A stretch of 19,328 nucleotides of DNA from Gemmatimonadota bacterium (GCA_039589275.1 JBDHHP010000070.1:1-19328), one strand, 5' to 3'; shown: positions 8,220 through 10,372, counted from the stretch's first letter. Program-made: numbers and translations. Notes: generated by a model from the sequence alone, not told the origin.

Positions 8220-8882
8220 TCACACCTGCCGCAACACGGGCCCGAACCTATGAGTGTTCAGCATTTGAGCAAGGGTGAACGCGTCTTCTAGCGACAACAC
8301 GAACGTACCAGCATGTCGTTCGGTCCAGGTTCGGCCAGCCTCGGACGAGACCAGGAAGTAAACCTTGTGGCAGAAGCTCTTCATGGTCTCCGGTGCGGAC
8401 TGCTCGATGCGCAGCTCGTCCGGCAGTAAGAACGACACGACTGTCTCTATTGGCTCCACCGCCTCCACCCCACCTGGGGAAACCCGAAGCCGCACAGGTA
8501 AGTCTGTTTCCGGACAGGTCGACTCAACCTGCGCAGTCTTCCCTAGCAGCTCTGGTATGAACAGTGAGTCCCATGCGCACCAAGTGTAGAGCGTCTGACT
8601 GTTCACAATGAACTTGTGCGCCATCTCCACTACAGCCAGCCCGCCGAACCCAATAATCGCCTTCTGCTCGTCGTGGAACATCAGACAGCTCAGGGCGTCG
8701 CTATCGAGTACCTCATTCACTTCGCGGTCTGAAATATCCAAGGCTGACGCCAGTTGTTGGCGGTAAACCGGTGTTCCCTTTGCGAGTTCTCGGTAGAGAC
8801 CGAGTGCAACTGTCTGTTGACCTTCGTTTAGCTGTAGGTCAGCGGCTGAAAGCGGTGCAAAGATCTGTTCTAGATCGGGCAT
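8220..8882 (-). CDS. merB: Organomercurial lyase MerB
   Basis: Collinear with classical MerB. The catalytic triad context is present: YTWCAWDSLFIPELLGKTA (Cys/Asp) and SFCHKVYF (second Cys). LYRELAKGTPV matches the MerB N-terminus. AGGAGG Shine-Dalgarno upstream. Confidence 0.93.
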   Translation of the reverse strand: MPDLEQIFAPLSAADLQLNEGQQTVALGLYRELAKGTPVYRQQLASALDISDREVNEVLDSDALSCLMFHDEQKAIIGFGGLAVVEMAHKFIVNSQTLYTWCAWDSLFIPELLGKTAQVESTCPETDLPVRLRVSPGGVEAVEPIETVVSFLLPDELRIEQSAPETMKSFCHKVYFLVSSEAGRTWTERHAGTFVLSLEDAFTLAQMLNTHRFGPVLRQV

Positions 8883-8891
8883 ATCTTGTCT

Positions 8892-9254
8892 CTACCTCCT
8901 GTCGCGCACCGTGGCTTCAAATCCTGTCATCCTCTCCAGTTCAGCAATGAACTGATCCGGCGTCGTCGCAGTCGAATCGAATGTCACCACCGCCTGTCCC
9001 GTCTCGTACGAAACGTCCGCACTCTCGACTCCATCAACTCGTCGTAGGGCCACACGGGCCGCTGCGGCACAGCCAGTTCACGTCATCCCGGTAACCAGGA
9101 GCGTCACGCTAGCGTAAGCCTCGGCTGCCATTTCCATGCTCATTGCGGACCCGTCGTCGTGTCCGGCCATGGCATCGTGATCGTGTCGCAGAAGTTGTGA
9201 CCCGACACCCACACCTATGACGGCTACGACGGCAACCCATTCGACTGTCTTCAT
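8892..9254 (-). CDS. merP: MerP-like periplasmic heavy-metal-associated (HMA) protein with an in-frame TGA at the first Cys of GMTCxxC; selenocysteine candidate or pseudogene
   Basis: My own translation gives MKTVEWVAVVAVIGVGVGSQLLRHDHDAMAGHDDGSAMSMEMAAEAYASVTLLVTGMT-TGA-TGCAAAARVALRRVDGVESADVSYETGQAVVTFDSTATTPDQFIAELERMTGFEATVRDRR. The TGA occupies 9078-9080. The frame is intact for 120 codons. AAGGAA Shine-Dalgarno upstream, and the stop lies 9 nt before merB. Both halves fall below the ORF-track length cut-off. Confidence 0.7.
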
Positions 9255-9271
9255 TGTCTATTCCTTATCAC

Positions 9272-9613
9272 TCAGAGTACCCAGACTGACCATGTCGGAT
9301 AGGTGGCGAACAGCACGGCTACGCCCGTAGCGATCCACAGCATCGTCTTCATTCGTTGTCTCACTCTGGGTTCCGCGCATACCTTGCCGGGTTCACAGGC
9401 CTTCTGGTCCTCACGATGCAGAAGGAAGAACCCGAGGCCGAGAAACACGGCTGTGGCACCAAGGAGGTAGGGCCTGAGGGGCTCGAAGGTACTAGACAGC
9501 CCAGCGCCCGACACGCCCACTGCCACGGCAAGCAAGGGTCCTGCACAGCAAAGCGCGGATACAACGGCCGCAGCCACACCGGCGCCAGCGATTGCGACCG
9601 TCTTGCCAGTCAC
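9272..9613 (-). CDS. merT: Mercuric ion transporter MerT
   Basis: Vicinal Cys pair in TM1 (SALCCAGPLL). LEPYRP-like FEPLRPYLL. The second Cys pair ACEPGKVCAEPRVR matches MerT ACKPGEVCAIPQVR. The GTG start overlaps the upstream stop (GTGA). Confidence 0.9.
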   Translation of the reverse strand: MTGKTVAIAGAGVAAAVVSALCCAGPLLAVAVGVSGAGLSSTFEPLRPYLLGATAVFLGLGFFLLHREDQKACEPGKVCAEPRVRQRMKTMLWIATGVAVLFATYPTWSVWVL

Positions 9614-9900
9614 ACTGCCTCCTCAATAGCAGCCCTTATTCCGTCGGCGGACGGCGTTCCATCCGCACGGCAGGCCGCGCCTCCCACACCCGCCTGGACA
9701 CCAGTCACGTCTCGACCGTTGACGAGGATGGTGGGTGATCCATGTTGCTTTACGTATTCCGGGACCTGTGGATCACCTTGCTCCCACTCCTGCCAGTCAG
9801 CGGATAGATCAAGGGCTGAGATAGCCTGCCGCAGGTTATTCCTAGCTGGCTCCGCGTTGGGACAGCCCTCGAAGTAGATCAGTTCAATCGTCGGGTTCAT
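9610..9900 (-). CDS. Small thioredoxin-fold protein with a monothiol GCP motif, embedded in the mer operon
   Basis: IELIYFEGCPNAEPARNNL followed by SPTILVNGRDV is the thioredoxin/glutaredoxin-like beta-alpha-beta pattern with CPNA in place of CxxC. A second Cys sits at AACRADG. GGAGA Shine-Dalgarno upstream; translationally coupled to merT. Confidence 0.65.
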   Translation of the reverse strand: MNPTIELIYFEGCPNAEPARNNLRQAISALDLSADWQEWEQGDPQVPEYVKQHGSPTILVNGRDVTGVQAGVGGAACRADGTPSADGIRAAIEEAV

Positions 9901-9913
9901 AGTTGCGTCTCCA

Positions 9914-10312
9914 TTAGTCGGTCTCTAGCACCTCAAGAATGGGGCACTCTCCTGACGGTGCTCGCTTTGCGCAGTCCGCAGCGAGGGTGGCGAGTGCTTT
10001 CTTGATGCTTTCGAGTTCGCGGATCTTGGTTTCCACGAGCGCAATCTTTTGGCGTGCCTTCCGTTCCACAGCGCCACAAGCTCTAGGGGACCGTGCTCGC
10101 AACTCTAGCAGCTCCGCTATCTCAGACAGCGAGAATCCGAGATCTTGCGCCCGTTTGATGAACCGAATGCGGCGCACTGTGTCGGGTGAGTATTGCCGGT
10201 AACCCGATGGCGTCCGTTCCGGTTCGGCAATCAGACCGCGCCGCTCATAGAAGCGGACCGTCTCCACCTTGACCCGCGCCTGTTCCGCCAACTGTCCGAT
10301 GCGAAGTGCCAT
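9914..10312 (-). CDS. merR: Hg(II)-responsive transcriptional regulator MerR
   Basis: MALRIGQLAEQARVKVETVRFYERRGLI is the MerR HTH. The three Hg-ligand Cys are in canonical spacing (RACGAV; C-x8-C in DCAKRAPSGECP). I start it at the internal ATG 10312 because the ORF extension to 10372 covers its own promoter and operator. Confidence 0.92.
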   Translation of the reverse strand: MALRIGQLAEQARVKVETVRFYERRGLIAEPERTPSGYRQYSPDTVRRIRFIKRAQDLGFSLSEIAELLELRARSPRACGAVERKARQKIALVETKIRELESIKKALATLAADCAKRAPSGECPILEVLETD

Positions 10313-10341
10313 TCCGCATCCCCTCTCCTTTACCATCAACA

Positions 10342-10372
10342 AGGTAAACCCCGTACCTAGGTACAGGGTCAA
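10342..10372 (-). promoter_or_regulatory. MerR-type promoter/operator with a 19-bp spacer
   Basis: The minus strand reads TTGACC-ctgtacctaggtacggggt-TTACCT, with the dyad CTGTAC-ctag-GTACGG inside the spacer. This closely parallels Tn21 merO, TTGACT-ccgtacatgagtacggaag-TAAGGT. Confidence 0.75.

Follow-up and report, generated by a model that had tools for sequence, protein, structure and literature searches.

A predicted merA-less mercury cassette with a probable selenocysteine MerP-like protein abuts an hgcAB-like methyltransferase cassette in a Gemmatimonadota genome

A 19,328-nt stretch of a Gemmatimonadota genome (GCA_039589275.1, JBDHHP010000070.1:1-19328; hereafter the window) carries a mercury-handling (mer) operon with an organomercurial lyase gene, merB, and no merA, directly behind a gene related to hgcAB, raising the question of whether the two form one linked system or are merely neighbours. 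An earlier annotation of the same DNA, here called the sequence-only reading, had proposed a link, in the form of a methylation/demethylation cycle, an alternative fate for imported Hg(II), or self-protection against an organometal product. The comparisons presented here instead favour, with a probability of roughly 0.65, a self-contained, MerR-controlled, merA-less cassette for Hg and organomercurials with the order merR-DF-merT-merP-merB, in which MerP would be a selenocysteine (Sec) form, abutting an independent mobile cassette with the order (tetR)-cpaM-hgcAB-like. The adjacency would then reflect co-residence of accessory cassettes in an accreted island, between a tRNA-Met fragment and an integrase by tRNA-Phe, rather than an obligate unit. 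Domains were assigned by Pfam and NCBIfam profile searches of the open reading frames (ORFs) of the window, with the NCBIfam equivalog cut-offs applied per family, and the related loci and contigs used for comparison carry L-numbers.

All five genes of the mer operon are present on the minus strand in the order merR, DF (a thioredoxin-fold gene), merT, merP-like and merB, at intergenic distances of 13 nt, -4 nt (a GTGA overlap), 17 nt and 9 nt, and the ORFs, the operator and the ribosome-binding sites are all intact. A MerR-type promoter/operator was read from the sequence at 10342-10372, on the same strand, where a -35 hexamer TTGACC (10372-10367) is followed by a 19-nt spacer and a -10 hexamer TTACCT (10347-10342), the alternative being a 20-nt spacer with TACCTT. 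The spacer holds the dyad ACCCTGTACCT/AGGTACGGGGT, which is the layout of a MerR operator; this dyad (10348-10369) has 11-nt arms that are 91% complementary and is the sole inverted repeat in 10300-10580. The first gene of the operon, merR (9914-10312; 132 amino acids; Pfam MerR_1, MerR-DNA-bind and MerR), starts with the ATG at 10312 behind AAGGAG, and gene calls in the strain variants L090 and L091 likewise give 132 amino acids. A TTG at 10372 was rejected as the merR start, 10372 being the first base of the -35 hexamer. Coordinates and profiles agree with the sequence-only reading on a five-gene operon with gaps of 9-17 nt and one GTGA overlap, and on a single MerR-type promoter with a 19-bp spacer, for which the 20-nt alternative is possible. 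The extent that it gave the operon, up to 10372, holds for the promoter, which begins there, but not for merR itself, which starts at 10312.

The MerR protein scored 142.1 against TIGR02051, below the cut-off of 150.85, with lower scores for the ZntR, CueR and CadR models (105-120). Pfam identifies a helix-turn-helix (HTH) region and a dimerisation helix, and cysteines are found exactly at positions 79, 114 and 123, the numbering of what we take to be the Hg-binding triad of Bacillus RC607 MerR. Scores below the NCBIfam equivalog cut-off, slightly to clearly, are common to MerR, MerB, MerT, DF and the HMA protein, and because of these scores the proteins are regarded as a divergent branch of the mer families.

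The merT gene (9272-9613, minus strand; 113 amino acids) begins with a GTG that overlaps the DF stop codon, and its product matches PF02411 at 72 bits against a cut-off of 33 and NF010314 at 71.8, below the cut-off of 150. MerT carries a CC pair in its first predicted transmembrane segment (ALCCAGP), followed by a second Cys pair (KACEPGKVCA). The next gene, merP-like (8892-9254, minus strand; PF00403), encodes an exported HMA protein of 120 amino acids if an in-frame TGA is read through. This protein consists of a hydrophobic N-terminal segment, a His/Asp/Met-rich stretch and an HMA domain with the motif GMT-U-TG-C, in that order. The HMA domain scores 55 bits with PF00403 and 54 with the MerP model TIGR02052 (cut-off 92.6), and the best NCBIfam match, obtained with C substituted for U, is NF041115, 'UxxU metal-binding (seleno)protein', at 80.6 against a cut-off of 95.

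The merP-like gene consists of two ORFs in a single frame, joined by the TGA (9080-9078) at the first Cys of the motif GMTCxxC. The same TGA is found in the strain variants L090, L091 and L093 and in the 53%-identical L172 (SGMT*TSC, the asterisk marking the TGA), and more distant MerP-like homologues carry Cys at this position. Among 5.8 billion proteins, the MerP-like homologues were without exception (14/14) fragments split at the TGA codon, two of them N-terminal and ending in '...TGMT', the other 12 C-terminal and starting 1-6 codons past the TGA, with nine of these 12 beginning at (V/M)xCAxAARV. Additionally, homologues as distant as 53-65% identity keep the TGA, with protein sequence conserved on both sides. 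Because the homologues are all split at the TGA, the merP-like gene most likely encodes a UxxC selenoprotein, with 9078-9080 as a probable selenocysteine codon. A weak candidate for a SECIS (selenocysteine insertion sequence) apical hairpin, GGCC-CGUGU-GGCC at 9048-9060 on the minus strand, lies 17 nt after the TGA; it is conserved in L172 as GGCC-CGGGU-GGCC, although it consists of just 4 bp. Downstream of the TGA, local folding does not improve on that of shuffled sequence (z = -0.06), and an Rfam search of the window gave no match, so the selenocysteine call is made on comparative evidence.

Between merR and merT lies the DF gene (9610-9900, minus strand), encoding a thioredoxin-fold protein of 96 amino acids in the Cys form. 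Its sole NCBIfam match is NF049942, 'DF family (seleno)protein', at 46.9 bits against a cut-off of 70 and over 76 of the 96 model positions; as the only match, yet one below the cut-off, this places the protein in a related sub-family. A total of 107 DF homologues were found, and across 40 of them C13, at the thioredoxin active-site position, and S55-P56, in the cis-Pro loop, are invariant and C77 nearly so. An AlphaFold2 model (predicted local distance difference test score, pLDDT, 84; predicted template-modelling score, pTM, 0.78) compared with the Protein Data Bank (PDB) by Foldseek gave thioredoxins, glutaredoxins and SelW-like proteins as top matches, at a probability of 0.9-1.0 and a template-modelling score (TM) of 0.55-0.65, with weak E-values of 5e-3 to 6e-2. 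The model supports a thioredoxin fold of the beta-alpha-beta-alpha-beta-beta-alpha type, with a Cys where helix 1 begins and a loop carrying cis-Pro. In addition, DF is paired with merB in L099, L100, L102, L177 and L178-L182. The fold, the conserved cysteines and the gene pairing suggest that DF is the likely cytoplasmic Hg(II) acceptor in place of MerA.

The last gene of the operon, merB (8220-8882, minus strand; 220 amino acids), encodes an organomercurial lyase that matches PF03243 at 101 bits against a cut-off of 27 and the solved MerB structures 3F2G and 1S6L with a phmmer E of 3e-32. The catalytic residues Cys96, Asp99 and Cys159 of solved MerB correspond to C102, D105 and C171 here, with WCAWD and SFCH aligning on WCALD and SFCS. 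The NCBIfam scores are a near miss (NF009710, 178.7 against a cut-off of 193; NF033555, 157.1 against 200), which fits a divergent sub-clade. MerB is accordingly described as a predicted C-Hg lyase, whose conserved catalytic residues look functional.

A path for mercury can be proposed from these parts. MerR, with its Cys79/114/123 triad, would sense Hg(II) and activate the long-spacer promoter, and the exported HMA protein would bind Hg(II) or an organomercurial cation (RHg+) via Sec-x-x-Cys and hand it over to the CC pair of MerT for import. MerB, with C102, D105 and C171, would cleave the C-Hg bond, and DF, through C13 and C77, may receive or buffer the Hg(II) in place of MerA or NmerA. The anatomy, the motifs and the recurrence of the module are directly observed; the hand-off of Hg(II) to DF and the final Hg(II) sink are inferred, the sink candidates being efflux, thiols or selenols of the cell, or a reductase whose gene lies elsewhere.

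There is no merA in any frame of the window, Pfam finds no pyridine-nucleotide-disulfide oxidoreductase domain among its large ORFs, and tblastn with five MerA sequences from other loci against the window gave a best E of 0.04. Both the Pfam and the tblastn results confirm the earlier statement that no ORF in the window resembles mercuric reductase, and with no MerA in the operon the view that this is not a classical reduce-and-volatilise system also stands. The contigs that carry MerB, the cytochrome c and the DUF3987 protein are short strain variants, which lengthen the window by only about 1 kb to the left and, with tRNA-Phe, by 0.2-0.4 kb to the right; the HgcAB-like protein itself had no record. 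Furthermore, no MerA matches were found in 15 related DF-type loci within the flanks recovered, four of these loci, in different contexts, having about 5-10 kb of flank.

These related loci show the cassette in several forms. In L099, L100 and L102 the order is merR-DF-merB, with merR internally deleted in L099 and L100, and in L177 and L178-L182 a DF-merB pair stands beside arsR/ACR3-type or arsR/arsP genes. In L187-L190, a merR-DF-merT-merP(U) cassette that has no merB and no merA adjoins an integrase and tRNA-Pro (L187 5202-6560), and L097 is a deletion derivative in which the promoter is fused to the merP 3' end, followed by merB. Overall, the gene order without merA turns up repeatedly, with proteins 63-89% identical and in differing genomic surroundings. 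Because modules elsewhere, without an HgcAB-like gene, also lack merA, the absence of merA is, as judged from these sequences, a trait of the mer cassette family that is independent of the HgcAB-like neighbour.

Several of these loci are of interest in themselves. The DF-merB pair adjoins ArsR and an SBF/ACR3-like transporter in L177 (9184-10992) and ArsR, an ArsP permease, Thioredoxin_3 and PhoU/PHO4 in L178 (5601-10956), a hint that this MerB sub-clade is at home among genes of mixed metal(loid) resistance. The L187 cassette amounts to an Hg importer and a sensor without a known detoxifying enzyme.

If merA were encoded in trans elsewhere in the genome, the operon would be an accessory broad-spectrum add-on to classical resistance, a minority possibility that nonetheless deserves serious weight. 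The window covers only 19 kb of the genome, and linkage to merA is usual among MerB relatives at greater distance: in 80 metagenome loci, relatives at 42-51% identity lie mostly within merR-merT-merA-merB operons. Against this stand the merA-free flanks of the DF-type modules in all four contexts and the report of Christakis et al. (2021; PMC8261052) that about 50% of MerB-encoding genomes are without MerA. A merA in trans is compatible with the self-contained cassette favoured here in all but the identity of the sink.

The second part of the question concerns the neighbour. Directly upstream of the mer operon, on the same strand, lies a gene for an HgcAB-like fusion protein (10566-11675; 369 amino acids; NF043039, with PF03599 and Fer4 families), whose corrinoid-binding domain contains NVWCAAGGG and which also has a transmembrane region and a tail resembling ferredoxin. 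Its score of 388 bits (cut-off 285) makes it a full member of NF043039, 'HgcAB-like fusion protein', a group for which more than 1400 homologues were found, but it scores below the cut-offs for both HgcA (NF040863, 162.2 against 275) and HgcB (NF040864, 49.9 against 99). The cap-helix motif of HgcA is given as N(V/I)WC(A/S)(A/G/S)GK in PMC10087281; in 25 HgcAB-like sequences the cap-helix Cys (NVWCAAGG) is invariant, and the Lys position is Gly, likewise invariant in all 25. The cysteines of the tail lie at 292, 298, 302, 324, 327, 330 and 334 only, the first motif being CxxxxxCxxxCP, and the last 35 residues are Cys-free. HgcB is described (10.1101/2022.07.06.499078) as having two CxxCxxCxxxCP motifs and an invariant Cys73 and C-terminal CC pair. 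Because no Cys occurs past residue 334, the HgcAB-like protein is without HgcB Cys73 and the terminal CC pair. By these sequence features, the window protein is neither HgcA nor HgcB, and cultured organisms with fused HgcAB make no methylmercury (MeHg) according to PMC10087281.

Upstream of this gene, cpaM (11662-12336, minus strand, with a GTG start set from the sequence and the L010 orthologue) encodes a corrinoid protein-associated S-adenosylmethionine (SAM) methyltransferase that matches NF043040 at 256.6 bits against a cut-off of 180, and its end overlaps the HgcAB-like start by 14 nt. A TetR-family regulator (12336-12956, minus strand; PF00440) precedes it, with the tetR stop TAG overlapping the cpaM GTG by one base and a sigma-70-like promoter at 13014-12987 (11/12 matches in a promoter scan). 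A scan for HgcAB-like genes with one genome per species gave at least 559 loci, of which the best 80 were kept; these 80 span Gemmatimonadota, Myxococcota, Acidobacteriota, Actinomycetota, Proteobacteria, Thermoplasmata and others, the best-matching genome locus being a Gemmatimonadota metagenome-assembled genome (MAG). CpaM adjoins HgcAB-like in 86/89 loci, and a TetR homologue was detected in 26/89. The neighbour had been described as an HgcAB relative paired with a methyltransferase, and NF043039 and NF043040 bear this out. From its distribution, the HgcAB-like and CpaM pair behaves as a widespread two-gene cassette, free-standing and mobile, with no function assigned.

Strain-variant contigs from the same sample series show deletions in this region. 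Relative to the window, L090 is missing 10928-11005 (78 bp, inside hgcAB-like) and 11648-11722 (75 bp, at its start), and L094 is missing 12531-12590 (60 bp, inside tetR). These deletions, all multiples of 3, are either real population variants disabling hgcAB-like or assembly artefacts.

The two cassettes are joined by a spacer of 193 nt (10373-10565, minus strand) that belongs to neither and is found only in this lineage. DNA homology of the HgcAB-like cassette stops at 10557-10562, no more than 9 nt from the stop codon, in L001, L010, L183 and L186; in L097 and L187-L190, that of the mer cassette starts right before the -35 hexamer, at 10373-10375. A simple scan found no terminator-like site in the gap, which is weak evidence in a GC-rich genome, and the gap folds no better than shuffled sequence (z = -0.78). 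The arrangement given by the sequence-only reading, a mer operon on the same strand 193 bp downstream of the HgcAB-like gene with no convincing terminator between them, is therefore correct as described.

Behind HgcAB-like genes that are 85-90% identical to that of the window, at least five different downstream contexts occur: the mer operon in the window, merB alone in L010, a RidA-type gene in L183-L185, unrelated repeats in L186, and, in L001-L005, a 66-bp stub left from the 3' end of merP, followed by unrelated DNA. The last of these is a clean deletion corresponding to window 8962-10556, at a GCCG microhomology, by which the mer genes were lost and cpaM-hgcAB-like was kept. Recombination at the junction is indicated by L091, which is 98% identical to the window over the mer part and 91.6% over hgcAB-like. 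The regulators are also separate, with TetR and a sigma-70-like promoter for one cassette and MerR with its own operator for the other.

Neighbour surveys were made from both sides. Within 10 kb of HgcAB-like, merB was found in one of the 80 species loci (L010), and merR, merT, merP and DF were found in none of the 80. Conversely, an HgcAB-like or CpaM-family gene occurs in 0/80 metagenome loci with MerB relatives. A CpaM match at 31% identity in L128 was set aside, as it looks like an unrelated methyltransferase. The census of HgcAB-like loci gave no recurrent partner beyond CpaM and TetR. P-type ATPases near HgcAB-like (5/80) were rejected as a metal link on account of their mixed pump types, one apparently of the Kdp type, two heavy-metal-type pumps and two further cation pumps whose type is uncertain. 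For the survey of how often HgcAB-like/methyltransferase pairs neighbour mer genes, the pairing itself is widespread, and a mer neighbourhood among the 80 loci is confined to the merB of L010.

These results bear directly on a functional link, in which CpaM and the HgcAB-like protein would make or handle an organometal(loid) or methylate Hg(II), with merB and the importer recruited for self-protection, for a cycle or as an alternative route for Hg(II). Such a link is improbable. Its attractions are the shared strand, the 193-nt distance with no terminator-like site, the cap-helix Cys kept in every HgcAB-like sequence compared, and the stub in L001-L005, which implies that the adjacency predates the window strain. 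In L010, moreover, an intact merB without merR lies 112 nt behind an HgcAB-like gene 86% identical to that of the window, and on these grounds it is probably co-transcribed with that gene. The window and L010 carry merB genes from different sub-clades, each directly behind an HgcAB-like gene, which suggests two separate juxtapositions; an insertion hot spot is at least as likely as a functional link to account for both placements, and is plausible because the junction is hypervariable. The link is opposed by the near absence of either partner from the loci of the other, by close relatives that lost the mer genes and kept cpaM-hgcAB-like, by the separate regulators, and by the nature of the HgcAB-like protein itself, with GGG in place of GK, the missing HgcB cysteines, the scores below the HgcA and HgcB cut-offs and the report on cultured organisms with fused HgcAB. 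As a general rule, a linked methylation/demethylation or self-protection system is therefore not supported. A narrower version is at best speculative, a long shot in which CpaM/HgcAB-like and MerB would be a working pair within a Gemmatimonadota-like clade only, the module making or risking a methyl-metal that the lyase, with DF and Sec-MerP, undoes or exploits, and the two placements reflecting selection.

Least credible, and very improbable, is the reading of these genes as a classical mer operon in decay, with merA deleted, merP broken by a nonsense codon and the cassette being lost, since the deletion derivatives among relatives (L097, merR of L099 and L100, the 66-bp merP stub of L001) and the SECIS-like fold that is no better than shuffled are outweighed by five intact ORFs with their operator and ribosome-binding sites, by conserved catalytic and metal-binding residues, by a TGA placed exactly at the Cys position and kept to 53-65% identity with flanking conservation, which a pseudogene would not show, and by the recurrence of the merA-less order at 63-89% protein identity elsewhere.

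The self-contained mer cassette beside an independent neighbour is thus preferred, although several points weigh against it. A merA in trans is possible, the search having covered the window and the recovered flanks, and with no terminator between the operons, read-through could still lead to co-expression. A second merB behind an HgcAB-like gene, in the other lineage represented by L010, is unexpected under random placement. Furthermore, the acceptor role of DF is drawn solely from its fold, its conserved cysteines and its gene pairing, and the scores of the mer proteins below the NCBIfam cut-offs mean that their substrate specificity could differ from Hg.

The wider window is consistent with an accreted island. 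At a distance of 445 nt, downstream of merB, is a tRNA-Met-derived fragment spanning the anticodon arm to the T arm (7742-7775, minus strand). In L098 an intact tRNA-Met adjoins merB on its upstream side, and the fragment matches positions 32-66 of this tRNA at 94% identity. The fragment is probably a scar of integration that marks the edge of an island. A T-arm-like stretch is also seen near 8022-8040, and ARAGORN found no tRNA in the window. At the right end, 15422-19328 encodes an HTH protein, DUF3987, an excisionase-like HTH_17 protein and a tyrosine integrase running to the window end, with tRNA-Phe about 60-80 bp past that end (L095 6466-6538). A search of the window for an attachment-site (att) repeat of the tRNA-Phe 3' end gave only 10-mers at chance level. 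The contig L092 was rejected as an 'empty site' of the island, as its divergent tail matches nothing else.

Further elements lie elsewhere in the window. Three intergenic copies of a repeat, about 82% identical and 105-190 bp long, are found at 352-470, 4214-4423 and 7513-7630 (plus strand), each just downstream of a plus-strand gene; their consensus gives a long, imperfect hairpin with about 32 pairs, and the element could be REP/MITE-like or terminator-like. A copy of this hairpin repeat comes after each of two tandem Ser/Thr protein kinase genes (1912-4227 and 4497-7481, plus strand), the first of which has clear TPR repeats; L092, which has no second kinase, diverges from the window right after one such copy. 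Between the TetR operon and the integrative module lie a weak GIY-YIG ORF (13926-13462, minus strand) and a Cys-rich ORF of 151 amino acids (13553-13098, minus strand), with no homologues of either in the surveyed loci.

Broad-spectrum mer operons are of the merR-merT-merP-merA-merB types (Tn21/pDU1358-like), and merR stands first and is co-directional in Bacillus RC607. The window operon resembles them in its MerR with three cysteines, the dyad in an over-long spacer of 19-20 nt, the CC pair of MerT, the HMA-type MerP and the MerB triad. It differs from them in having no MerA, in the DF gene between merR and merT, in the TGA at the first Cys of MerP, and in proteins that all score under the NCBIfam equivalog cut-offs.

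Similarly, the HgcAB-like protein shares with HgcA and HgcB a CFeSP-type corrinoid domain, a cap-helix Cys, a transmembrane region and a ferredoxin-like tail, but unlike them it falls below both cut-offs, has NVWCAAGGG rather than a motif ending in GK, and has no equivalent of the CC pair or Cys73. Fused 'HgcAB-like' proteins had been noted before (Podar 2015 and Gilmour 2018, as cited in PMC10087281). Caution is advised against taking HgcAB-like genes beside mer genes as evidence for mercury methylation.

A further parallel is the selenocysteine-assisted organometallic (SAO) locus of anaerobes which, as described by Haft and Gwadz (2022; 10.1101/2022.07.06.499078), likewise combines a MerB-family lyase, a thioredoxin-like protein and Sec in metal-binding motifs. 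The SAO locus has nine genes, with an ABC importer, no MerR and SaoL, a distant MerB relative with a CU motif, and is confined to anaerobes. In the window, unlike SAO, MerB is in the Cys form and Sec would be in the HMA protein, and NF040728 scores only 18 bits here. Haft and Gwadz also state that no selenoprotein was known in characterised mercury-resistance families, except for a few MerT proteins. If true, Sec-MerP would be a rare selenocysteine inside a MerR-regulated mer operon.

Finally, in having MerB and no linked MerA the window resembles the MerB-encoding genomes without MerA surveyed by Christakis et al. (2021; PMC8261052), which are common, amounting to about half of those with MerB, and in which the fate of the released Hg(II) is left unexplained. 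In the window, by contrast, the merA-less state belongs to a definable cassette family with a constant DF partner, which goes unmentioned in the consulted parts of that paper and of the other literature. New here are the recurring partnership with DF and MerP in its probable Sec form, no description of either having been found in the literature searched. The window and its relatives thereby give a concrete, recurrent merA-less cassette in which to ask how such genomes cope with released Hg(II), and in which DF, as a candidate for the acceptor of Hg(II) that is missing there, can be tested directly.

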